64,000 nt of DNA, taken from the NCBI GenBank assembly GCA_965220965.1, contig OZ244852.1:832001-896000 (forward strand), in the 5' to 3' direction. Below are positions 43,061-58,656 of the stretch, in pieces (the stretch's first letter is position 1; each line of letters starts with the position of its first letter). The DNA is from Candidatus Marinacidobacterium sp. GTDB lineage: Bacteria; Acidobacteriota; Vicinamibacteria; Marinacidobacterales; Marinacidobacteraceae. Made by a program: the position numbers and the translations under genes. Under the pieces are notes generated by a model. That model saw only the letters and a list, made by a program, of their open reading frames with translations, was not told where the DNA came from and did not search any database.

Positions 43061-44752
43061 GTGATTCGCGGAGTGTGGAGCGACTTCGGTCGGTGGAAGG
43101 ATGGTTGGGATGAAATCCAGACAGTGGGCGGCGGTGGACAGGGGAACGGTTACCGTGCGCGTCGCCAGTCAGATGGCCGGGAGGCCTTCGTCAAGGTGAT
43201 CAAGTCCAAGCGCGACGCCGAGCGTCGGAGACGCTTCTTTCGCGAGGCGACAGCCTATGACACGGTTCGCAGCAGTGGCGTTCCGCGACTGATCGAGAGC
43301 AACGCCCATCTCCACGAAGCCGCAGAGATCGAGCCGTATATCGCGACAGAGTTCATCGAGGGGCCAACGTTGAGAATCTGGCGGGACGGACGGCATGAGG
43401 TTGAACTCGCCACCGCCCTAAGATTGGTCCGGTCTCTCCTCGCGGCGATCGGCGACTGTCACCACGGCGGTGTCGTTCACCGCGACATCAAGCCAGACAA
43501 CATCATCCTGAGAGGTGGGAATCCGTCCCAGCCTGTGCTTCTGGATTTTGGCCTGAGCTTCAAGGTGACGCAGACCAGTGAGGCCGTGACCGAAGACGGG
43601 CAGGAAATCGGCAATCGTTTTCTGCGCTTGCATGAGCTCTCCGCCGGTAGTCAACTTAAGCAGGATCCCCGGTCGGACTTGTCGTTTGCTGGTGGAATCC
43701 TGTTCTACTCCCTGACGGGCAGGAATCCCGACATCCCAGAGGATGCGGAGGGTCGTCTCCCTCACCAACGGAGGGATGTGCGTTCGCAGCTTCGACACAT
43801 CGCCGGTGAGCGGTTGGAGCGGTTGCTGTCCATATTCGACAGCGCCTTCGCACCAAGAATCCACGACCGGTTCGTGAACGTCGAGGCAATGGTTGCAAGT
43901 CTGGAGAACCTCACGGAATCGCGGCGTGTTGTGGTGGGCACGTTGGATCATGATCGAGACGCCATCCGTGAGGCGTTGAACACTGCGTCGGCACAGCGGT
44001 CATCAGAGAGTCTTGACAGACTCACGCACGCTCTCGAAGAGCTGCATCGAGTTGACGATGAAGCAGCGACGTGGTTGGACTGTCCTCTAACTCTGACACG
44101 AGGCGGACGGCACGTAGATGCCGACTTGGGAAGAAACACTGTGTCCTGGCGTAAGCGAGGAATGACCGACGATGTGTTACGAGTACAGCAGGAGGTCCGG
44201 GAGGTAGGCGGTGAACTCGTCATCAAGCTGTCGGGCGAAGCGGTCTGGCGGACGGCGGTGAACGCACCGACGTATGGAGAGTGCTTTGCCGAGAGAATTC
44301 GGAGATGGCTGGTCGGGAGACTCCGCGAGGCTATCGCGAATCCGGAGGCGCTGCCGCCCGAGGCCAGCTATTTCCAGGAAGAGCCGCCGCTCGGGTCGCT
44401 AACGGAAGCGCAGGAGCGAGCGCGCCGAGAGGACCGCCACGTTCTGGCGTTCGTGTATGACCCGGCGCAGAAGGAGCGCGGCGAACGCGGCAAATTGGAG
44501 TGGTGTCTGAGCAACTTCCTTGAGAACCGCAGGACGCGCGAAACGCTCCGCGCAGCGTTTGTTCTAGCGCTCGTGCCACTGTCTCAAGTAAGTGCGGTCA
44601 CAGACGAGCTCAGTGGCGAGTCGATGGAGACTTCACGCTGGGTCGTCTTTGATGCGGACCTCGCACCCAAGCGGCACGAAGTCATCTATGCGAACCCGCA
44701 GATGGCGGAGAGTCTCGCCGGTGAGCTGTCCGACGAGTTCGGTCGCCGATAG
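43061..44752 (+). CDS. Hanks-type Ser/Thr protein kinase with C-terminal thioredoxin/UAS-like domain
   Basis: 'GGGGQG','FVKVI','FFREA','HRDIKPDNII','LDFGLS','RSDL'; no TM; codon usage AT-richer than neighbours. Confidence 0.88.
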   Translation: MIRGVWSDFGRWKDGWDEIQTVGGGGQGNGYRARRQSDGREAFVKVIKSKRDAERRRRFFREATAYDTVRSSGVPRLIESNAHLHEAAEIEPYIATEFIEGPTLRIWRDGRHEVELATALRLVRSLLAAIGDCHHGGVVHRDIKPDNIILRGGNPSQPVLLDFGLSFKVTQTSEAVTEDGQEIGNRFLRLHELSAGSQLKQDPRSDLSFAGGILFYSLTGRNPDIPEDAEGRLPHQRRDVRSQLRHIAGERLERLLSIFDSAFAPRIHDRFVNVEAMVASLENLTESRRVVVGTLDHDRDAIREALNTASAQRSSESLDRLTHALEELHRVDDEAATWLDCPLTLTRGGRHVDADLGRNTVSWRKRGMTDDVLRVQQEVREVGGELVIKLSGEAVWRTAVNAPTYGECFAERIRRWLVGRLREAIANPEALPPEASYFQEEPPLGSLTEAQERARREDRHVLAFVYDPAQKERGERGKLEWCLSNFLENRRTRETLRAAFVLALVPLSQVSAVTDELSGESMETSRWVVFDADLAPKRHEVIYANPQMAESLAGELSDEFGRR

Positions 44753-48436: not shown

Positions 48437-51028
48437 ATGTCGCAGCTTCGCCGTTTCCGGTTCCGGGTCGCGCTCCTCGCCGTCGCTTCTCTGCTGGTCG
48501 CCGGGTTGGCCGGCGCGCAGGACGCGCCGCCGGCCATCCCGTCGATCGCGGACAAGACCTCCGGCATGACAGCGATCGACGGCTTCGTCCCGCTCCACTG
48601 GGACGAACGCACCGGGAAGATCTACGCCGAGCTGGGTCCGATGGAGGAGGAGTTCCTCTACCAGGTCTCGGCCGGTTCGGGCCTCGGCAGCAACCCGGTC
48701 GGTCTGGACCGCGGCCAGTTGAGCATGACGGCGGTGCTCCGTCCGATGCGGATCGGGCCGCGGGTGCTCCTCATGGAGCCCAACTACCGGTTCCGCGCGA
48801 TCAGCGACAACCCCGACGAGGTCCGCGCCGTCCGCGATGCGTTCGCGCCCTCGGTGCACTGGGGATTCCAGGTGGAGGCCGAGACCGGAGACCGGGTCCT
48901 GGTGGACATGACCGACTTCTTCCTGCGCGACACCCACGGCGCCATCGCCCGGCTGGCCCGCGCCCGGCAGGGGACCTACCGGCTCGACCGCGACCGCAGC
49001 GCCTTCTACCTGGAGAACACCAAGGGCTTCCCCGACAACACCGAGGTCGAGACCCTGCTCACGTTCACTTCGGACAATCCGGGACCGCTCGTCCAGGCGA
49101 CGGCCGCCAGCGGGGAAGCGGTGACGCTGCGCCAGCACCACTCGCTCGTCCGCCTTCCCGGCCCCGGCTTCGAAATGCGCATCGCCGACCCGAGGATCGG
49201 CGTGAACGGCCCGCAGTACATGGACTACGCGACCGCGATCGACGAGCCGATGACCGTCCGGCTCACCGCCCGGCACCGCCTCGAGAAGCGCGATCCCTCG
49301 GCGGAGCGTTCCGAGGTGGTCGAGCCGATCGTCTACTACCTCGACCGGGGCGCTCCCGAGCCGATCCGGAGCGCGCTCCTCGAGGGGGCCCGCTGGTGGA
49401 ACGAGGCGTTCGAGGCGGCCGGCTTCATCGACGGCTACCGGGTCGAGGTCCTTCCGGAAGGCGCCGACGCCCAGGACGTCCGCTACAACATGATCCACTG
49501 GACGCACCGGCGAACTCGCGGCTGGTCCTATGGCGGTTCGGTCCAGGACCCGCGCACCGGGGAGATCATCAAGGGGAACGTGAACCTCGGGAGCCTGCGG
49601 CTGCGGCAGGACCACCTCCTCGGGGTCGGCATGGTCGCGCCGTATGTCGGGGGCTCGGGCGCCGCGCCGGCCGGCCACGACCACGGGATGCACGGCCTTC
49701 CGCCGGACCCCGGCGGCCCGCACTCCTGCGGCCTCTCCGCGACGCCGGGATTCGGGTATCTGGCGCAGATCAGCCCGGACGCCGACCCGGTGGAGCTGGC
49801 GCTGGCCCGCGTGCGGCAGCTCTCCGCCCATGAGGTGGGCCACACGCTGGGATTCCCGCACAACTACATGTCGTCCACCTACGACGGCCGCGCCAGTGTC
49901 ATGGACTATCCGGCGCCGCTGGCGACGCTGGAAGACGACGGGACGGTCTCGCTGAGCGACGCCTACGGCGTCGGCGTGGGCTCCTACGACATCCTCTCGG
50001 TCCGCTGGGCCTACGCCCACGTCCCGCCCGCCGAGACTGCGGCCACGCTCGACCGGATCATGCAGGAAGGGCTCATGGCGGAGACCCGGTTCATGGCCCA
50101 CACCGACAACTACATCGGGGCGGGCGCGCACCCGCTGGCCTCCGTCTGGGACAACGGCGGCGATCTGGTCCGCCACCTCGGCCGCGAGATCGACATCCGG
50201 CAGGCGGGTCTGGACGCCTTCGGCGAGCGCGTGATCCGGGTGGGCGAACCGATGTCACGGCTCGAGCCGGTTCTGATGCCGCTCTATCTCCACCACCGCT
50301 TCCAGATGAAGGCGGCGATGAACACCATCGGCGGGCAGGAGTACTACTACGCGGTCCGGGGCGACGGGCAACGCCCGGTGAACGCCGTCCCCGGCGACCG
50401 CCAGCGCGAAGCCCTTGACACCGTCCTGAGGACGCTCGACACGAGCTTCCTGGCCCTTCCGAGGCGCATCGTCGAGATGATCCCCCCGCCTGCCTACCGG
50501 GAGCGGGGAACGGAGACCTTCGACGGGCACACCGGCGTCGTCTTCGACCCGCTGGCGGCGGCGGACACTTCCGCCGACTACACCGTCGAGCTGCTGCTCC
50601 ACCCCGAGCGGATGGCGCGGCTGGTGAACAACCACGCGCTCGACCCGGACCAGCCCGGACTGAGCGAGGTCCTCGACCGGCTCACAGAGGCCACCTGGGG
50701 AGAGGACGAGCCGGATGACACCTACCACCGCGCCGTCCAGGACGCCGCCGAGCGCAGCGTGCTGAACGGGATGATGCGGGAAGCGCTGAACCCGGACAAC
50801 CCGGCGCGCGTTCGCGCCGTCATCGAGGACCGGCTCGTCGCCCTCGGAGAGAGCCTGGGCGAGATGGACGACCGCAGCCCGCACGAGGAGCTGGCGTGGA
50901 TGGACATCGACCGCTTCCTCGACCGGGACGACAGTCTCGACCCCAACGCCCGCCGTCCGGCCCTCCCGCCGGGCTCCCCCATCGGCGGCGCCTCGGCGTC
51001 AGGGGAGCGCATCCACCCGGGCCACTGA
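48437..51028 (+). CDS. Exported zinc metalloprotease (DUF5117/DUF4953, EcxA-like metzincin)
   Basis: Signal peptide; 'PIVYYLD','WNEAFE','DPRTGEI','HEVGHTLGFPHN','SVMDY'. Confidence 0.9.
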   Translation: MSQLRRFRFRVALLAVASLLVAGLAGAQDAPPAIPSIADKTSGMTAIDGFVPLHWDERTGKIYAELGPMEEEFLYQVSAGSGLGSNPVGLDRGQLSMTAVLRPMRIGPRVLLMEPNYRFRAISDNPDEVRAVRDAFAPSVHWGFQVEAETGDRVLVDMTDFFLRDTHGAIARLARARQGTYRLDRDRSAFYLENTKGFPDNTEVETLLTFTSDNPGPLVQATAASGEAVTLRQHHSLVRLPGPGFEMRIADPRIGVNGPQYMDYATAIDEPMTVRLTARHRLEKRDPSAERSEVVEPIVYYLDRGAPEPIRSALLEGARWWNEAFEAAGFIDGYRVEVLPEGADAQDVRYNMIHWTHRRTRGWSYGGSVQDPRTGEIIKGNVNLGSLRLRQDHLLGVGMVAPYVGGSGAAPAGHDHGMHGLPPDPGGPHSCGLSATPGFGYLAQISPDADPVELALARVRQLSAHEVGHTLGFPHNYMSSTYDGRASVMDYPAPLATLEDDGTVSLSDAYGVGVGSYDILSVRWAYAHVPPAETAATLDRIMQEGLMAETRFMAHTDNYIGAGAHPLASVWDNGGDLVRHLGREIDIRQAGLDAFGERVIRVGEPMSRLEPVLMPLYLHHRFQMKAAMNTIGGQEYYYAVRGDGQRPVNAVPGDRQREALDTVLRTLDTSFLALPRRIVEMIPPPAYRERGTETFDGHTGVVFDPLAAADTSADYTVELLLHPERMARLVNNHALDPDQPGLSEVLDRLTEATWGEDEPDDTYHRAVQDAAERSVLNGMMREALNPDNPARVRAVIEDRLVALGESLGEMDDRSPHEELAWMDIDRFLDRDDSLDPNARRPALPPGSPIGGASASGERIHPGH

Positions 51029-51038
51029 GCGGCTCACG

Positions 51039-51070
51039 GGACCTCCCGGAGCCAAGACTCCGGGAGTTCC
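51039..51070. terminator. Hairpin between convergent protease and helicase genes
   Basis: GGAcCTCCCGGAG-ccaaga-CTCCGGGAGtTCC: 9-bp perfect stem plus 3 bp after one mismatch. Confidence 0.45.
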
Positions 51071-51101
51071 GCTCCGCGGTCAGAGGTTCAGGTCCGCCCA
51101 C

Positions 51102-54100
51102 CTATCCGCGGGATAGCGCCTGTTCGATCTCATTCAGGGCGAATTTGCGGTTCAGGTGTGGGTGCAGCCACTGATTCCGATAACTCCTGAGGCACCCATA
51201 GCAGCTCGCGTCGCAACCGCAGTCGCCGCGCACACGCGTTCGCGCAAGTTCCAGCACGAGGCGGAAACTCTCCCTGTTGGTGAGTTGGCCTACGAGTCCA
51301 GCGCCGCCAGGAACATCGTCGTAGAGAACCACTCCGTCCACGGTAAGGGTGACGTTCAGGTCGCGTTCGGGGACGGCAACGGCATCGGCAGCTCCATGGA
51401 GAAGCGCGTACCCGAGCGAATACCGAACCCACTTCTGGCGCCCCGGCAGCTCAACCTTGACCACATCTGTGACAAGCTCGTGACCCAACGCGTAGCTGGA
51501 GAAGGTACCTCGGCAGGGACGCCCGTCCGCTGTCTTGTGGCCGCGCGCCCGTGGGTTCGCGTCGTGTAGTCCGCAGTCCTCGCACAGCAAGAAGTTGCGC
51601 TGACCCTGACCCTCACAGAGAACCACTAACCTGCCTGGCAGAGCCTCTGCGACATCGAGCCCGAAGAGTCTCTTCTTGTGGGCCTTGCGCGCCCCAGCGG
51701 AATACCCCTGGAAGAACGGCTTCGTCGTATACTGACGGCGCGGTCGGCGCACCGGAGGGCGTGGGTCGGTCTGGAGGTCGGTAGTAAAGCCCCAACGTGG
51801 GACGAGATAGCGACCTGAGTACTGTGCACCTTCCTCCTTCTCCGCGTCATTTGAGGATTCGAAGGCGCCCTCCTCGTTCCAGAAGTACCAGCGGACGGTG
51901 GGAGCCTGCCCCTCGACCCTCCGAATACCCACAGACTTCCACTCCAGCTTGTCGGCGACTACGCTGCTCCCAGGCGCGTATTCGGCAAGCGCGAGTGAGA
52001 GATCACGGTCGAGCTCTATGTTCTGGCCATTCTTGGTCGCTCCCGTTTGCAGCTCGACCACATCCACCGGAAATCCGTATTTTGGGATGATGGCGTGTCG
52101 CGCCAGAAACGAAATCGCCATCTCCCGCTCCATCGCGTTCAATCGGTCCTCCAACCGATAGCGCCTCCTTCGTTCAGTGCGAGTGGCATTCAGATCCGCC
52201 AGGATCCGTTCGATCTGAAGATACTCGGCGCACCGATCGGCGACGGCGCGGGCGAGTCTGCTCTCGCTCCCGGTAAGCCGTCGAACCCATTTCTGTCCAT
52301 CGACCCCGACGCTCTCCCGCAGCGTCGCCGGAACGACGTCGTGCAGGACTCGCGGCAGCGCGTCGTCGTTGCGGCAGAACTCGCCGAAAGCATCACACAC
52401 ATCGGGGTGTCGCCAGTCCTCGCCAATGAAATCCTTGACTCGTCCGGCGCGAATACGATGCGCCGGCTGCCGGAAGAAGTGTGATAGGGCGACCGCGGTC
52501 ATGTGCCTTTGGACGATCTGAGGATTTGTCAGGCGAAGGATCGGCGGTCGGACCCGACCAGAGATCATCTCCTGCTGATGTCGGAAGTAGTGGAGGTCAT
52601 GGGAGTTGCGGCGACAGTAGGTGACGGCAAGACCTGCCTTCCCCCGCCGGCCGGCGCGGCCGACTCGTTGTGTGTAGTTGAACGGTTCGGGTGGCACGTT
52701 ACGAAGAAACGTCAGGCGAAGATCACCGAGGTCGACACCGACTTCGAACGTAGTGGACGAACTGAGCAGGTGCACCCGATCCCGCTGAAAATCGCGCTGG
52801 ACGCTGCGCGCTTCCTCCGGAGTCAACTGCGCTGTGTGTTCGGCCGTTCTGAAGTCTGCTGGAAGGTCCGATGCGAGGTAGAGGCGTCGGTAGTGGTTGT
52901 CCTCGTGCGTGCTCTTCACCCGACCGAGTCGTCCCGTGCAGCGAGGACGGGGACAGAGGCCGCGAAGGGCTATGGCAGTGACCCGGTCGCACCTACGACA
53001 CCGCCAGAGGTCGGATGACGAGGCCGGACGGACACGGAGCCACTCGGCGCGCAGCCGGAAGCCGTTAGTCCTGCGATCGATGGACAGGAGAGCGGCGCTG
53101 GACGAGCGTCGCGACTGAGCGACGAGGTGATCCCAGACACGAACCATCACATCTTGGGCGGCGAACACGGGGTCCGTCTCACCATTGACTAGTTTGGGAA
53201 GATAGTCGCGAACAAGGCCGCCCTGCGGTGAGCCCCACTGGCGCAGATGACGGCGTCCGTGCGGACGATCTTGGCTGAAGGCGAGTTGGGGCCTCTCTGG
53301 CTTTATGACGGACCACGTGGGCAGATCCGGATCGGTGGAGGGCAGCTCCACCGCGTCGTTTCTGAGGAACTCGGCGAGCAGCAATTGCAGGAGCGCACTG
53401 GCCTCCGCCGGGTTCAACCGCCAGGGAGTCTCCTGGAACACTGGCGGGAGATTCATGCCCGGAGGCAGTGCGACATGCCAGCGGCAGAGGCCGACCCCCG
53501 CCAGCGACAGCCGCGTGTCATCGGTCACGGCTTCACGAAGCACTGCCGCATAGGCATCTCTGTAGCGCTGTGCTCCAGTCTCCGACGGTGCGTGAACCCC
53601 CAGCTCCGACCGGACTCTCTCGAGTCTCTGCGCGAGATCGGCCACGGACAACTCGCAGTGACTCGCGCCACGCGGTGAAGCCTTCTGTCGAAGGGCGCGG
53701 AGCAACAGGTTGCGCGTGAGCAGAGTCCGGTAGGAGTCCTCCGCATACCAAGCAAAGAAAGCTGCGTCCTGTCGGCTATCCGCGAAGGCAAGGATCTTCT
53801 TCTCATCCTCGGGAAGAAACCGGTGCATGGCCGTAGCCAGAACGGCGTTGGGGGCGTCGGCGCCGTGGACGATCGCCTGAACGGGATCGCCAACGCCACC
53901 TCGGCTGTAGCTACAGACCGCGCACCTCTTCAGTTGATCCCGGTACTCCGGTTGCTGTCGGTTCTCACTCCGTTCAACACGGATCGCCGCTCCACAGCGG
54001 CACGTCAGCTCGTCGCTCAGCGCACCGCAGATACGGCAGAGCAGAAGGGAACCCTCCTCGGCGGGCAGGTAGAACTCGACCCCGAACTCCTCGCGCGACG

Positions 54101-55358
54101 GATCCCGGCAGGCTTCCAGGAGGAACCCTCCGGTACGGCGGCCAACGTAGTAGTGCTGGCCACACTCGCGGCACAGCGCTATCTCGATATAGGCCGACTT
54201 GCCAGCCTCATCCCCGACATGACCGCGGTTCAGCGTGACCCGGTCCTGCCCATGATGGTGATGCAGGAAAGCGCCTTCAAGCGCCCTTGCAAACACGTGG
54301 TAGCGACGTACGTGCGCACTCGTCCTGGCCCGTGTAGTGTCCTCCTGACCGAAGATCACGCACTCGGGAGCGAAGGGCTCACCGAACAGGGCACTCGCAA
54401 ATCGAGCCACGGATGCCCGAGCATCGGCATCGTGTGTCGACGCGATGGTGGCGCTCGTGGCGACGCATCGAAATGACCCCGACCGGCCGCCTCGCCGCAG
54501 TCGATTCGTGAGACGGCGCAGCAGCATCGCCATCTCGATCCCCCTTGCACCGCGATACATGTGCGCCTCGTCGAGGACCAGAAACCGCCAGTGAGCGGCC
54601 CGGCCGGCATCGAACAAAGGGCTGTCATCCGGCCGGAGGAGCAGATGCTCGAGCATCGAGTAGTTGGTAAACAGAAGGTGCGGCGGCCGCGCCCGCATAT
54701 CCTCGCGGAATACTGTTTCGCCGGGGAGCGCGCTCTCAGCGCGCGCGCGACCGTGCCGGCGTCGGTCTCTGATGTTCTCCGGTGTCTGCCCGATGTACTG
54801 TCCAAAGGAGAATCGGAAGTCGGAGCGGTCCGCAGCGAGGTTGCCGCAGAGCGCGCCGATCCGCTCGCGCTGGTCGTTGACCAGGGCGTTCATGGGATAG
54901 AGAACGAGGGCGCGGACGCCGGGGTCGCCCAGCGTGCCGGCCAGGTGTTCTCCGTAGAGGGAGAACAGAATGGGATAAAGGAAGCACTCGGTCTTCCCGC
55001 TGGCTGTGCCGCTCGCCACGGCGATGTTGGACTGTGCGAACGCGCTCTGTCGAATGGCCTCCTCCTGATGTGCATAGAGCGCGCCGGAGTGCAGAGCAGG
55101 TAAGAGCGCGCCTGCCCGGCCAGGAAACGCCGCCTCGGCGAGAGCGGGAGCCTCGACCCCGAGCCGAAAATACCGGCCGTATTCCGGAACAGGTTCGGTG
55201 ACCAGTGTGCCCTCGGCTTCGAGCGCGGTGCGGAAGGACTCGCGTAGTTGGGGATCTCGGAAATGGAAAGATGTTGTGAGGTACCTGAGGTAGCTCGAAC
55301 GCAGACGTCGGACCCACCCGGCGATCTCCGCGTCGGAATGGGGTTGGGTGACGCTCAT
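51102..55358 (-). CDS. Large SF2 DEAH helicase with Zn-binding motifs and C-terminal DUF1998 (DruE/MrfA-like)
   Basis: 'LYAHQEEAI','SGTASGKT','YPMNALVNDQ','TNYSMLE','LDEAH','TSAT','FADSRQDAA','TFEVGVD','QRVGRAGRR','YDDVPGGAG','CGCDASCYGCL'. Confidence 0.93.
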   Translation of the reverse strand: MSVTQPHSDAEIAGWVRRLRSSYLRYLTTSFHFRDPQLRESFRTALEAEGTLVTEPVPEYGRYFRLGVEAPALAEAAFPGRAGALLPALHSGALYAHQEEAIRQSAFAQSNIAVASGTASGKTECFLYPILFSLYGEHLAGTLGDPGVRALVLYPMNALVNDQRERIGALCGNLAADRSDFRFSFGQYIGQTPENIRDRRRHGRARAESALPGETVFREDMRARPPHLLFTNYSMLEHLLLRPDDSPLFDAGRAAHWRFLVLDEAHMYRGARGIEMAMLLRRLTNRLRRGGRSGSFRCVATSATIASTHDADARASVARFASALFGEPFAPECVIFGQEDTTRARTSAHVRRYHVFARALEGAFLHHHHGQDRVTLNRGHVGDEAGKSAYIEIALCRECGQHYYVGRRTGGFLLEACRDPSREEFGVEFYLPAEEGSLLLCRICGALSDELTCRCGAAIRVERSENRQQPEYRDQLKRCAVCSYSRGGVGDPVQAIVHGADAPNAVLATAMHRFLPEDEKKILAFADSRQDAAFFAWYAEDSYRTLLTRNLLLRALRQKASPRGASHCELSVADLAQRLERVRSELGVHAPSETGAQRYRDAYAAVLREAVTDDTRLSLAGVGLCRWHVALPPGMNLPPVFQETPWRLNPAEASALLQLLLAEFLRNDAVELPSTDPDLPTWSVIKPERPQLAFSQDRPHGRRHLRQWGSPQGGLVRDYLPKLVNGETDPVFAAQDVMVRVWDHLVAQSRRSSSAALLSIDRRTNGFRLRAEWLRVRPASSSDLWRCRRCDRVTAIALRGLCPRPRCTGRLGRVKSTHEDNHYRRLYLASDLPADFRTAEHTAQLTPEEARSVQRDFQRDRVHLLSSSTTFEVGVDLGDLRLTFLRNVPPEPFNYTQRVGRAGRRGKAGLAVTYCRRNSHDLHYFRHQQEMISGRVRPPILRLTNPQIVQRHMTAVALSHFFRQPAHRIRAGRVKDFIGEDWRHPDVCDAFGEFCRNDDALPRVLHDVVPATLRESVGVDGQKWVRRLTGSESRLARAVADRCAEYLQIERILADLNATRTERRRRYRLEDRLNAMEREMAISFLARHAIIPKYGFPVDVVELQTGATKNGQNIELDRDLSLALAEYAPGSSVVADKLEWKSVGIRRVEGQAPTVRWYFWNEEGAFESSNDAEKEEGAQYSGRYLVPRWGFTTDLQTDPRPPVRRPRRQYTTKPFFQGYSAGARKAHKKRLFGLDVAEALPGRLVVLCEGQGQRNFLLCEDCGLHDANPRARGHKTADGRPCRGTFSSYALGHELVTDVVKVELPGRQKWVRYSLGYALLHGAADAVAVPERDLNVTLTVDGVVLYDDVPGGAGLVGQLTNRESFRLVLELARTRVRGDCGCDASCYGCLRSYRNQWLHPHLNRKFALNEIEQALSRG

Positions 55359-55407
55359 CGATCCGTGGCGCGGAGCATCCGATCGCAGACCCGGGTCCAG
55401 GCGTGCC

Positions 55408-57957
55408 TCATCGGGACGTGAGGGCCCGAAGGGCCGCGACGGCGGCGTTGACGACGTGGGCGCGGGACCCGATGGAACGAACGCGAATGCTTCGGATGCC
55501 TGCGGTCTCCAAGAGCGCCCGTAGACGGCCACGGGCGTGAACGCCCGAGTCGGCGCTCGCGGGCCGCAGCAGAAGGCGCGAGGAGCCATAGGCGCCAACC
55601 GTGGCGCGCGGAATGGTGTTGTGGGAGATCGGGACGACGAACAGGGCGCGTCGAGCCCGATGCTCGGCCCGGGCACATGCTCTTCGAGGTGTGCTCTCGC
55701 ATGCGCGTCCGACGCCGAGTCGGCCGTTGCGATCACCCACGGCTACGAGCGCCACGAATCGTCGGTGTCGAGGCGCTACGGCCCGCCGTGAGAGCGGTCG
55801 GAGCGTGAGAAGGCGAGGGGTCAGCGCCGGTGGAGATTGGGAGGGGGACGGGTGGGAAGGAAGTTCGAGGAGGAGTGCCGGCAGAGTGTGCGAGCCAGCC
55901 CGTAGCCTGAGTTCCCCGGACGCTGGCTCGGATTGGACAGAGAGGAGGTCGGCGAAAGAGCCCAGCGGAATCGAGACGGCCGTCTTGTGCGGAAACTGGG
56001 CAGCAAGGCCACTGTCGGCCTCGTGGCGGTAGCGTCCGGGCTGACCGTCAGCGAAGGCCGCCTCGATCGTCCGCTCCGTGGGTGGCGCCAGAACCTCCAG
56101 TGCGGCGTGTCGCCGATAGGTTCGGCGAAGCGGTCGTCGCTCCCAGCAGGAGTCACCCGCCATCCGCCACCAGAGGCGCGGCAGATCCAGGACAATCGGG
56201 AGGCTGTCGTCGCCGTCGCGCAGTTCAAGGCGCACCCGATCGGTCTTGGGGGAGTACGGCACCCGCGCCTCTCGAGTGCGAACGGCCACATCGCGCGTGC
56301 CGGTGTTGAGCTGCAGCGACCGACCATGGCTGTCTTCGATCGTGATGTAGTCCTCGTCGCGGTCGTCTGGCAAGAGGAGTCGGAGACCCTCGAATGGCAG
56401 TCCGTTCACCAGAATCCTCTTGAGGCCTGGCCAGTAGCGGAACGTGGTCGTGTCGGCGAGATGAGTGTGGCCGCTCTGATACGTGCGAAGAAAGAACTCG
56501 CCGCGCCTGTTCCCAATGCGCACGGGTGTTGGCTGCTCTGTGAGTTCGAAGTTCTTGCCCTTCCACGGTTCGTCGGCTGGCCCCGCGTGGCGCCCGGCGG
56601 CGCGGGGGTGCTCCTCTCCGACGCGAGCCCAGACTATCCCGGGCGCGGGCCAGAGTCTGGGAGGATCCCCGACGAAGAGCTCATCGTCATCGCTGTCGAG
56701 GACCGTGGTCCCCTCGAGGCGCGCACTCTTGTCGGAGCCGACGGGATAGTCCCCAAGTGTGCCCAGGGAGTCGGCGTCGTCCGAGGGCCGGATTTCGTAG
56801 TGATGACAATGTAGGCTCGGATCCGTGCAGAGCTCCGACGCTCGGAACTTCTGTTGACTGCGCTTCCAATTCGGCGGCGCAAAGGCGAGGAAACGGCCAC
56901 GACGGAGGGTCCGTGAGAGCTCCCCGCGCAGGTCGGGCTCGGTTCCGGAGAGCCTGAAGAAGAGCGGTCTCTGGTTGTCGAACAGCGGAATGTCAAGCGG
57001 ATCTCCGTTCGATGGGAAAAGACGCACGGGCTGCCGCAACCGGGAGAGAAACAGGCGACCGTCCACCAGGTCCATTTCCTCGTTGCCCTGGGTCGCCCTC
57101 TCTATGTTGCGCTCGCGCGGAATCTCGATCACGACGCGCCATCGATTCCTGTGGCGCGTGCACTTCACGCGTACCGGAGGGAGACGCGGCCCGGTATCGC
57201 CGGTGGGGTTGGGGCGGCGCCGGGGACCGATGCGCCGAGGTTCCCCTGGCTGGCGCGGAAGTTCGTAGTCGAGCCGTGCGCGTGAGCGCCTGATTTCTGT
57301 CGCGTGTAGGGTGACTTGTCCAGGGGATTCCCGCCGCTCGTCGGCAGACTCCGCGCCGTCGTTCGACATTGGATCGGGAGGCGAAGAGTGGTCTCGATCT
57401 TCGTCCGCGCGGGCCGTGGACATACTGGCGTCGACGGCCAACCCGGCGCCTCTGGCCGGTCCTGGAGGGGGATGTTGATCGTGATGGCTGTGCGTGCTGT
57501 CCGGAGGACGTCGGAGTGCTTCGCTGGCGTCTGGCTCCGGAGAGTCGGGGGTGCTCTCCGGGAAGTGCTCATGGGCCGGCTCGTCGGTGTCCCCCTCGAC
57601 CAGGGGTGGCTCCTGGACTGAAGAGGCCACTGTACGGACGATGTCTGATGGTGCGTCAGGCGTCGCGCGTTCCAGATCGGGTGGCCGATTGGTCGATTTG
57701 GGCGGCGTCTCGAGGGTCGGCGAGTGGGGGCCGTCAGACACGGAGAGCTGCGGTGCGACGTGCGGCGCCGACGAGGTCTCGGCTTCGGATGAGGAAGGCG
57801 CCGGTGTCTTCTGGTCATGTGGGATCGTCCGGTGCGAGGCGCCCTTCAACGCGCCGTGGGTCCGAACCGCCGGCTCCCGCTCCACGGGAGGTCGCGGCTT
57901 GATCCGCACCCACGCCAACAGGCGCTGAAGCGGCGCGATGAGCCACCGGAAGGCCAT
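55408..57957 (-). CDS. 849-aa helicase-associated protein: amphipathic N-terminus, low-complexity linker, beta-rich unknown core, C-terminal ribosomal protein uS5-like domain
   Basis: AAGGAG RBS 13 nt before ATG; residues about 714-849 contain 'FVALVAVGDRNGRLGVG','TIP...G..GSSRLLLRPAS..SGV.A.G.LRALLETAGI...RSIGS'. Confidence 0.8.
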   Translation of the reverse strand: MAFRWLIAPLQRLLAWVRIKPRPPVEREPAVRTHGALKGASHRTIPHDQKTPAPSSSEAETSSAPHVAPQLSVSDGPHSPTLETPPKSTNRPPDLERATPDAPSDIVRTVASSVQEPPLVEGDTDEPAHEHFPESTPDSPEPDASEALRRPPDSTHSHHDQHPPPGPARGAGLAVDASMSTARADEDRDHSSPPDPMSNDGAESADERRESPGQVTLHATEIRRSRARLDYELPRQPGEPRRIGPRRRPNPTGDTGPRLPPVRVKCTRHRNRWRVVIEIPRERNIERATQGNEEMDLVDGRLFLSRLRQPVRLFPSNGDPLDIPLFDNQRPLFFRLSGTEPDLRGELSRTLRRGRFLAFAPPNWKRSQQKFRASELCTDPSLHCHHYEIRPSDDADSLGTLGDYPVGSDKSARLEGTTVLDSDDDELFVGDPPRLWPAPGIVWARVGEEHPRAAGRHAGPADEPWKGKNFELTEQPTPVRIGNRRGEFFLRTYQSGHTHLADTTTFRYWPGLKRILVNGLPFEGLRLLLPDDRDEDYITIEDSHGRSLQLNTGTRDVAVRTREARVPYSPKTDRVRLELRDGDDSLPIVLDLPRLWWRMAGDSCWERRPLRRTYRRHAALEVLAPPTERTIEAAFADGQPGRYRHEADSGLAAQFPHKTAVSIPLGSFADLLSVQSEPASGELRLRAGSHTLPALLLELPSHPSPSQSPPALTPRLLTLRPLSRRAVAPRHRRFVALVAVGDRNGRLGVGRACESTPRRACARAEHRARRALFVVPISHNTIPRATVGAYGSSRLLLRPASADSGVHARGRLRALLETAGIRSIRVRSIGSRAHVVNAAVAALRALTSR

Positions 57958-58261: not shown

Positions 58262-58330
58262 AGATGGAGCGCTATGTTCCGCTTGGACGATGGCGAGGCC
58301 ACTGACGTGGACCTGATCAACCAACATTGA
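58262..58330 (+). pseudogene. higB: 3' remnant of a HigB (RelE-family plasmid-killer) toxin gene
   Basis: Frame reads RWSAMFRLDDGEATDVDLINQH*, resembling the HigB tail 'FRFEDG.A.DVD..DYH'; lies directly upstream of higA; upstream codons show no HigB similarity. Confidence 0.65.
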
Positions 58331-58344
58331 CAGGAGCGGTGACC

Positions 58345-58656
58345 ATGAACCACGCGAGCACCCGGATCGGTCCGATGCGGAACCCGCCGCACCTCGGCGA
58401 GCTCATCTGCGAGAGCATGGACGATCTGGGCTTGAGCGTGACCGAGACGGCGACGCGCTTGGGCTGCGAGCGCGCAACCCTGTCCCGCCTTCTGAACGGC
58501 AAGGCGGCGATGTCGGCCCGCATGGCGCTGGCGCTGGAAGCGATCGGCTGGGGGACCGCCGAACACTGGATGCGGATGCAGGCGAGCTACGAGCTCGCGC
58601 AGGCGCGTCGGACCCGGAGCGCCGCCGGGGGAAGTCCGGCGCCACCTCGGTGCTGA
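58345..58656 (+). CDS. higA: HigA-family addiction module antidote (XRE HTH)
   Basis: 'NPPHLGELI','LSVTETATRLG..RATLSRLLNG','MALAL','AEHWMRMQASYEL'; AGGAG RBS. Confidence 0.9.
   Translation: MNHASTRIGPMRNPPHLGELICESMDDLGLSVTETATRLGCERATLSRLLNGKAAMSARMALALEAIGWGTAEHWMRMQASYELAQARRTRSAAGGSPAPPRC

Follow-up and report, generated by a model that had tools for sequence, protein, structure and literature searches.

What does a Druantia-type helicase do when the gene beside it codes for something other than DruH? This question is raised by two adjacent genes in a 64,000-nucleotide stretch of DNA from Candidatus Marinacidobacterium sp. (Acidobacteriota; contig OZ244852.1, positions 832,001 to 896,000), which is referred to here as the window and belongs to a genome of 3.25 Mb. 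One gene codes for a DruE-like helicase, the other for a partner protein that ends in a copy of ribosomal protein uS5. From homology and genomic context we favour, with some reserve, the reading that the two genes make up an anti-phage module of their own which moves horizontally and follows the plan of type III Druantia with a different partner. Druantia-type helicases are under active structural and mechanistic study, and the role of the non-helicase partner is the main question there.

The two genes are co-oriented on the minus strand with the partner first, as derived from the list of open reading frames (ORFs) and their translations:

55408-57957, minus strand: partner gene, coding for 849 amino acids (aa), with an ATG start and an AAGGAG motif 5' of the ATG
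55359-55407, minus strand: intergenic spacer of 49 bp between partner and helicase
51102-55358, minus strand: helicase gene, coding for 1418 aa, DruE-like, of the YprA family and without a nuclease domain

The helicase ORF is open from 51102 to 55736. Its start is conserved and lies at the ATG of position 55358: relatives align from residue 4-10 of the resulting 1418-aa form, as does the alignment of 41 clade members. Elsewhere the two genes overlap by 4-8 nt in some loci and are separated by up to about 180 nt in others. The GC content is 0.62-0.675 over positions 51000-57500 and 0.70-0.72 in both flanks, so that the pair lies 5-8 points below its surroundings in a window with about 70% GC. 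The initial annotation, which was made from the DNA letters and a list of ORFs, had described two co-oriented genes 49 bp apart in an AT-shifted islet, and ORFs, coordinates and GC profile agree with this.

The following domains were assigned in the helicase:

54435-55073, minus strand: RecA1 lobe (residues 96-308; Pfam DEAD, 1.6e-17) with Walker A K122 and DEAH at 263-266
53913-54173, minus strand: Cys-rich zinc-binding insertion (residues 396-482) with eight invariant Cys
52938-53000, minus strand: second four-Cys ribbon (C787, C790, C802, C807), invariant in 41 sequences
52641-52859, minus strand: RecA2 lobe (residues 834-906; Pfam Helicase_C, 2.6e-10) with motif VI
51189-51413, minus strand: MZB/DUF1998 zinc domain (residues 1316-1390; Pfam MZB, 4.8e-10) with invariant C1380/1382/1386/1389

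The Walker A motif GTASGKT (K122), the DEAH box (263-266) and motif VI (QRVGRAGRR) are intact, and the motif residues are invariant or nearly so among the 41 aligned clade members. The Cys residues C396/399, C441/444, C453/455, C479/482, C787/790/802/807, C1259/1262/1282 and C1380/1382/1386/1389 are identical in all 41. The intact superfamily 2 (SF2) motifs, the Cys clusters and the four-Cys DUF1998 tail which the initial annotation had listed are thus all present, and all of the Cys are invariant. Matched by position, residues 396-482 would correspond to the 'ZBM beta-barrel' of DruE-branch helicases, as this is given in the accessible part of PMC12458937 (Table S2). An SF2 core followed by an MZB domain with a four-Cys zinc site is the trait of the YprA/MrfA-like family and is found here. 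The C-terminal nuclease domains resembling phospholipase D (PLD), which characterize DruE of subtype III-A, are absent: Pfam detects no PLD domain, and with just 28 residues past MZB the protein is too short at its end to accommodate a nuclease of the PLD or Vsr type.

Among the PADLOC models, the helicase matches DruE1 (7.1e-144), DruE3 (4.2e-135), DruE2 (1.5e-124) and DruE4 (3.9e-111) with 371-480 bits, while the models for DpdJ, DrmA and BrxH reach at most 70 bits. The best matches in the PDB are chains of DruE (9tu7_Y, 2.7e-65; 9wae_A, 1.2e-49), followed by YprA (6znp, 1.4e-18). The proposed DruE-like character is well borne out by this lead over DpdJ, DrmA, BrxH and YprA. DISARM, which combines DrmA, DrmB (DUF1998) and DrmC (PLD) with a methylase, was considered and rejected: its DrmA models match weakly (1.4e-17, RecA2 only), and the pair is flanked neither by a PLD gene nor by one for a methylase.

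The helicase differs, however, from each of the known DruE subfamilies. Genuine DruE of type III matches the DruE3 model (PDLC00037) over its full length in a single stretch, as does the acidobacterial protein from locus L035 with 2016.7 bits (residues 5-1695 to model positions 2-1673). The window helicase obtains 450 bits in two stretches, about the same as with DruE1, 2 and 4. Together with three clade members from other phyla it spans 440-517 bits, always fragmented and with DruE1 about equal to DruE3. Its identity to DruE of the L035 type is 39% in RecA1 and 25% in the C-terminal half. The best 120 homologues have 1395-1435 aa, 48-58% identity and 98-100% coverage; nearly all of them are metagenomic, and none has a name more specific than 'DEAD/DEAH box helicase'. 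Among the candidates that were scored, 6095 proteins belong to this clade at E<=1e-50, and the mean column identity is 67% in the 41-member alignment. The clade is thus large, yet without a specific name. We assign the helicase to the DruE branch of the YprA/MrfA-like helicases, where the sequence comparisons place it outside all four DruE subfamilies.

Three genomes with the pair (G010, G014, G005) contain a second, larger DruE-like helicase elsewhere (loci L027, L028, L029; ORFs of 1820-2149 aa). In the ORF lists, to which this comparison was confined, a large same-strand partner is not obvious beside these.

The partner protein consists of five segments:

57892-57957, minus strand: N-terminal amphipathic, Trp-containing helix (residues 1-22)
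57247-57891, minus strand: low-complexity linker rich in Pro, Ser, Glu, Asp and His (residues about 23-237)
57202-57246, minus strand: basic motif with the family consensus PRxIGGRR, just N-terminal of the core (residues 238-252)
55843-57198, minus strand: all-beta core of about four sandwiches in a chain, resembling immunoglobulin (Ig) or fibronectin type III (FN3) domains (residues 254-705)
55411-55842, minus strand: strongly diverged two-domain copy of uS5 (residues 706-849)

M1 and W16 are invariant in the family alignment, and the Trp-containing N-terminal stretch is also found in the full-length members of a wider alignment; this helix may serve in docking or membrane contact. The linker is probably disordered. 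It varies in length among relatives, and its alignment proved impossible. The core is confidently modelled as a chain of Ig/FN3-like beta-sandwiches and belongs to no Pfam or PADLOC family, the uS5 tail being the only part of the partner that Pfam recognizes. None of the 5027 PADLOC models matches the partner even at E<=10, and none of 59 family representatives matches PADLOC. A word-indexed search with the whole partner retrieved only two relatives because the first 250 residues are of low complexity. An exhaustive HMMER search with residues 260-849 retrieved 2593 proteins at E<=1e-3, among them 52 at E<=1e-30, with the similarity in residues about 260-700. In the same genome pairs the partner is 32-37% identical and the helicase 51-57%, so the partner evolves much faster than the helicase. 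One family member of 1173 aa (P0007) has two tandem Ig-like cores followed by a tail that resembles ribosomal protein eL13.

The C-terminal segment of the partner family is a swappable module. In a census of 173 members, performed with phmmer and a hidden Markov model (HMM) of the eL13-like block, 125 tails are eL13-like, 12 are uS5, three are KH domains of the NusA type and one is bS6; for the other 32, some of which may be truncated, no tail was detected. Pfam assigns Ribosomal_L13e to 31 of the 59 representatives, uS5 to four, NusA-type KH_5 to three, Ribosomal_S6 to one and an N-terminal DUF4389 to one, and finds nothing in 19. The eL13-like domain, the commonest tail (P0013, P0014, P0025 and about 120 others), matches positions about 34-113 of Ribosomal_L13e, and the family profile retrieves only eL13 chains from the PDB (best 2.9e-10). 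As this family shows, the eL13-like domain is common in bacterial proteins.

Captures of tails were counted on trees of the core (IQ-TREE in quick mode with 50 rows; FastTree with 169 rows) instead of a tree of the uS5 module, in which 12 of 22 branches stayed open and three rows were very long. The window partner is found in a core-tree clade of 13 rows (support 100) that comprises ten uS5 forms and, nested inside them, three KH forms. Two other uS5 forms, P0012 and P0109, group with an eL13 form (support 99) deep among the eL13 forms, and the bS6 form is separate. At least four tail changes are needed to account for this topology, and at least two of them involve uS5.

The window partner has the two domains of uS5, and its tail can be superposed on solved structures of that protein, which confirms the uS5 fusion that had been noticed initially. 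The gene is nevertheless distinct from rpsE, the gene for uS5. A genuine rpsE is a stand-alone gene for about 170 residues that scores above the equivalog cut-off and belongs to a ribosomal gene cluster. The window copy is the tail of an 849-aa protein, obtains 84.2 bits with TIGR01021 where the cut-off is 164, and is found 1.77 Mb away from the real rpsE of this genome.

Fused copies differ widely in how closely they resemble the rpsE product of their own host. They are 91% identical over 168 residues in genome G006 and 90% over 160 residues in G010, but only 57% in G005, 39% in G014, 35% in G017 and 34% in the window genome, where the GKA.EV..AI.KA stretch is absent. The fused uS5 of P0003 is 88% identical to the rpsE product of G006. 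Rates of synonymous (dS) and nonsynonymous (dN) substitution were estimated according to Nei and Gojobori. Between the fused copies of G006 and G010, dS is 1.38 and dN/dS 0.06; between the fused copy of G006 and its own rpsE, dS is 0.38 and dN/dS 0.13; and between rpsE genes of different genera, dS is 1.0-1.3 and dN/dS 0.03-0.04. Overall, the near-canonical fused copies have dN/dS values of 0.05-0.13. By these estimates some lineages keep a faithful uS5 under purifying selection, while the copy in the window has drifted far and is degenerate. The fused uS5 of G006 looks as if it had recently been taken from, or converted by, the host rpsE.

The pairing with the helicase is much more stable than the tail. 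Among 40 related genomes, the partner core occurs in six of 24 from the same family and in none of 16 from two sister families, and it is absent from both genomes of the same genus. In all six genomes with the partner, a helicase with 51-57% identity is encoded directly downstream. A scan of a genome collection yielded 17 partner loci from Acidobacteriota, Dehalococcoidia (Chloroflexota), Alpha- and Gammaproteobacteria and a Salinispira; two of these (L010, L011) duplicate relatives that were already counted (L004, L005). The 17 loci cover five phyla, and a full helicase follows the partner in 15 of them; in three (L012, L022, L026) the match is in two pieces. The remaining two loci are a gammaproteobacterial one (L021), where only a C-terminal remnant of the helicase persists behind an inserted type II restriction-modification (RM) and PDC-S06 cassette, and L025, which lacks a helicase and has a truncated partner. 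When 300 further genomes were sampled evenly from the phylum, a single one contained the partner and the same one a helicase of the clade, the two being adjacent; one of the two scans used a stricter first look, so that its count is a floor.

The pair is absent from G002, a complete genome of the same genus, where the genes for the Met-zincin and the TonB receptor, between which the pair lies in the window, are 9.9 kb apart. Gene content at this site thus varies between close relatives. We conclude from the distribution that the two genes form a conserved, accessory and evidently horizontally mobile cassette whose members have travelled together across phyla.

Three of these loci deserve a separate description. 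In L021, the partner is separated from the helicase remnant by genes for a methylase and a restriction enzyme, both of type II, and by PDC-S06 (L021:12264-16712), so that one defence cassette sits inside another through insertion. In the Salinispira locus, an insertion sequence (IS)-type integrase (rve, HTH_21; L017:13206-14553) splits the helicase gene, and a type II RM pair is encoded directly downstream. In the other genome of the phylum with the pair, G109, the helicase match (G109:C8:457356-462721) stops at residue 1106 and residues 890-1411 are matched on a separate contig (G109:C9:1273935-1275506); a split gene could account for this, as could a partial second copy or an artefact of assembly.

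We also inspected the neighbours of the pair for defence genes. Within about 6 kb, 19 of 132 ORFs match a PADLOC model at E<=1e-5, distributed over 11 of 16 loci, which is a raw count without a background rate. Strong matches (E<=1e-30) flank the pair in six loci:

L010: type I restriction enzyme
L013, L017 and L023: PDC-S01 (an ATPase with AAA_14 and DUF4143)
L017: type II methyltransferase and restriction enzyme
L018: mad3
L020: HerA, PglZ, BrxA and PDC-S68

Some copies of the pair are thus found next to RM or BREX genes, and such surroundings are suggestive of a defence-gene neighbourhood.

How would such a module act? By analogy to the DruH-DruE pairs of E. coli and M. smegmatis, the helicase would load where replicating phage DNA is single-stranded or has a 3' end, and unwind it in 3'-to-5' direction. 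The partner would take the role of DruH, with its C-terminal module binding single-stranded nucleic acid, and might gate, sense or clamp. As both proteins lack a nuclease fold, protection would be due either to unwinding with sequestration or to nucleases of the host. The uS5 tail in the window is most likely a generic fold for binding RNA or single-stranded DNA (ssDNA) and not a part of the ribosome.

The initial annotation had proposed a Druantia-III-like or new two-component system in which the partner would sense, possibly at RNA or ribosome level, and the helicase would act. This proposal is supported in part. The two-gene unit stands, given the helicase directly downstream in 6/6 relatives and 15/17 loci, as do the DruE-like helicase and the accessory nature of the pair, which is missing from both same-genus genomes and thus is not syntenic core genome. 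The partner is not recognized as a DruH. Nor are the two genes full-length matches to DruE and DruH, which would have refuted the proposal, the helicase match being fragmentary and the partner having none in PADLOC. The suggested look at the neighbourhood gave strong matches near six of 16 loci.

Several findings weigh against the anti-phage module as we propose it. The flanks of five of the 16 loci contain no PADLOC match, most immediate neighbours are metabolic genes, and several of the flank matches are to generic proteins (methylases, RecD-like helicases, AAA ATPases) in a count that has no background control. Mobile elements contributed nothing: on plasmids the partner matched rpsE genes only (27 records) and never with its core, no helicase match covered at least 80% of its length, and none of 28 candidate partner stretches on viral contigs was confirmed. 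The role of DruH is assigned by architecture, and an alignment of the partner core to one DruH with hhalign reached a probability of 2.8%. With a profile of 30 DruH members it reached 27% (E 6.5e-4) over 229 columns in the middle, Ig-containing region of DruH. Finally, generic nucleic-acid binding does not account for the near-canonical uS5 tails of G006 and G010, which are under strong purifying selection.

These tails lend indirect support to a ribosome- or RNA-directed unit, in which the tail would dock on 16S ribosomal RNA or the 30S subunit (uS5, bS6) or on nascent RNA (NusA-KH), take Ig chain and helicase along to the machinery of translation or transcription, and let the unit watch or act on RNA and not on phage DNA. 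All four tail types are RNA-binding parts of the ribosome or the transcription apparatus. The core tree requires two or more independent acquisitions of uS5, and the 90-91% identity to the host protein in G006 and G010, with dN/dS near that of genuine rpsE, implies that the same surfaces are constrained. However, the DruE helicases characterized so far act on DNA, as far as the accessible parts of the reports tell (10.64898/2026.05.12.722862, 10.64898/2026.05.13.724758). The window copy, at 34% identity to its host rpsE product and with the GKA.EV..AI.KA stretch lost, has left canonical uS5 behind, and 125 of 173 tails are eL13-like. To our knowledge, eL13 is a protein of archaeal and eukaryotic ribosomes and has no site on the bacterial ribosome, so that its predominance argues against a strictly ribosomal target. 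We consider an RNA-directed function unlikely.

Alternatively, the tail might be an integrated decoy, a bait copy of host uS5, bS6 or NusA, and a phage factor that engages the bait would release or activate the helicase. The near-identical copies of host rpsE in two relatives would fit, as would the dS of 0.38 in G006, well below that between genera (1.0-1.4), the repeated replacement of tails (at least four changes) and the fast divergence of the partner. But the commonest tail, the eL13-like one, matches no known bacterial host protein, and several uS5 tails, including that in the window, have drifted to 34-57% identity with the host protein, which would spoil the mimicry. A phage factor that targets uS5 did not come up in the literature. 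We regard this explanation as very unlikely.

A broader view of the partner family, which we put forward as a tentative possibility, is that it represents a bacterial immune sensor which has repeatedly captured whole host ribosomal or transcription proteins (uS5 at least twice, bS6, NusA-KH, and an eL13-like domain of otherwise archaeal and eukaryotic occurrence), either as baits or as modules that dock on the ribosome or on RNA. Its counterpart in plants would be the integrated decoys of immune receptors. If true, the condition of the translation machinery would be signalled to a DruE-type helicase by this sensor. Because some copies keep a near-exact host uS5 under purifying selection, it can be tested directly whether a defence by a DNA helicase is linked to the ribosome, and the series of uS5, bS6, KH and eL13-like tails is a natural domain-swap experiment for asking what the partner must bind.

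It has to be considered whether the pair is an ordinary type III Druantia of subtype III-B with a very divergent DruH. The comparison with Druantia and related systems is limited to those parts of the cited publications that were accessible. The pair MSMEG_1253/1254 of M. smegmatis codes for a DruH of 1132 aa and a DruE of 1667 aa, which interact and are both needed (PMC13316683), and the III-B helicase is compact and nuclease-free (10.64898/2026.05.13.724758). Two acidobacterial loci (L034, L035) carry type III pairs of the same kind, with a DruH of 1135-1144 aa and a DruE of about 1670-1697 aa. The window pair resembles these three in being a two-gene operon with the partner first and an accessory distribution, and in its components: an SF2 helicase with a Cys-rich zinc insertion and C-terminal MZB/DUF1998 but no nuclease, beside a partner rich in beta-sandwiches. 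The Ig-like domains of the partner and the profile alignment over 229 columns also speak for this explanation.

The differences are considerable. The window partner is about 300 aa shorter, with a disordered tether in place of the globular N-terminal domain, and ends in a module of the ribosomal-protein type. The helicase is shorter by about 250-280 aa and belongs to a clade of its own (48-58% identity within the clade, 25-39% to DruE of III-B). Genuine acidobacterial pairs are readily recognized by their own models: the partners in L034 and L035 match 9-11 PADLOC DruH models (down to 1e-109) and the DruE3 match of the L035 helicase exceeds 2016 bits, while the window helicase reaches 450 bits in fragments. 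DruH homologues of L035 carry Pfam PF27205 and PF27201; the window partner carries only its two S5 domains and is matched by none of the DruH models (PADLOC PDLC00038-50; PF27205, PF27201; 'STY4851/ECs_5259 family'). Canonical DruH (PDLC00038) was not found in the window genome either. The sizes, 849 and 1418 aa, likewise differ from the larger ones given above. An ordinary III-B system is scarcely probable.

Subtype III-A of E. coli is instructive with respect to the partner. Its helicase is homologous to that of the window (2.7e-65 to 9tu7_Y), but E. coli DruE has 2108 aa and two PLD-like domains (10.64898/2026.05.12.722862, 10.64898/2026.05.13.724758), which the window helicase lacks. E. 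coli DruH starts with a globular domain, continues with six Ig-like subdomains and ends in a domain for ssDNA binding which is inhibited by ATP (10.64898/2026.05.12.722862), and such an Ig-like chain ending in an ssDNA-binding domain recalls the core and tail of the window partner. Sequence similarity between the two is undetectable, however, and the nucleic-acid-binding end in the window is a borrowed ribosomal or KH module. Neither Foldseek nor VIA listed DruH (9tud) for either partner model, in structure libraries that may not contain 9tud. As modelled, the partner would share with DruH the plan of a beta-sandwich chain followed by a nucleic-acid-binding end, which does not suffice to make it a member of the DruH family.

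More distant are the other branches of YprA-like helicases. The repair helicases MrfA/YprA (6znp) share the SF2 core and the MZB four-Cys zinc domain, but they have about 750 aa and their match is weaker and restricted to RecA1 (1.4e-18). They have no conserved partner or are paired with MrfB, according to the accessible text of PMC12458937. ARMADA, BRIGADE and TALON belong to the same 'defence' branch as the window helicase, and in TALON the helicase is likewise paired with nucleic-acid-binding proteins of core information processing, namely a fusion of tetratricopeptide repeats with a cold-shock domain (TPR-CSD) as well as TATA-binding proteins (PMC12458937). The window differs in that a BrxHII-like helicase, a PglX methylase, a NERD nuclease, a TPR-CSD protein and a TATA-binding protein are all missing among the neighbours. 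For ARMADA, the partners looked for in the scanned flanks, a BrxHII/RapA-like helicase and a PglX-like methyltransferase, were absent beside the pair, a comparison made at domain level only (PADLOC v2.0 has no ARMADA models).

The least probable explanation is a housekeeping pair for DNA repair in the manner of MrfA/YprA or for ribosome or RNA metabolism, which the SF2-MZB architecture with its YprA match (6znp, 1.4e-18) and the metabolic neighbours in many loci would suit, but the DruE scores are far above those of YprA-type models, the distribution is sporadic with the pair in a low-GC islet and absent from the closest relatives, and the copies broken by an IS (L017) or an RM cassette (L021) would be tolerated only for dispensable genes.

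Full-text searches retrieved no description of this family of partners, nor of a Druantia-type partner with a tail from a ribosomal protein, and the string 'ribosom' does not occur in the main texts of PMC12458937, PMC13316683, 10.64898/2026.05.12.722862 and 10.64898/2026.05.13.724758. The pair is thus probably an undescribed Druantia-like defence variant, while the helicase clade itself may fall under what the accessible part of PMC12458937 calls 'III-B-like'.

In the window, the pair has the following neighbours, to which a gene for a TonB-dependent receptor is added as a further one:

48437-51028: Met-zincin gene
58327-58656, plus strand: small gene of the HTH_31/Xre type (Pfam HTH_31, 2.4e-6), divergent from the partner

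As had been noted from the sequence, the pair is unaccompanied: these neighbours include no gene for a methylase, a nuclease or a PLD protein. The small helix-turn-helix (HTH) gene could be a local regulator, but its membership in the unit is uncertain, and in the other loci scanned with Pfam the ORFs next to the pair gave no HTH match. A tRNA scan found no genes, and a scan for promoters and terminators gave nothing useful.

In G002, the site between the two flank genes (L036, G002:C1:1334500-1345500) is occupied by RimK, a gene for a spermine synthase with tetratricopeptide repeats and another TonB receptor. The substrate that RimK glutamylates is the ribosomal protein bS6.

At 43061-44752 (plus strand), 6.3 kb from the pair, the window encodes a Ser/Thr kinase that matches PADLOC PD-T4-6 over its full length (7.4e-196; residues 4-560 to positions 6-558 of 564). 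The gene lies in a low-GC patch of its own (0.60) and is a second acquired defence gene.

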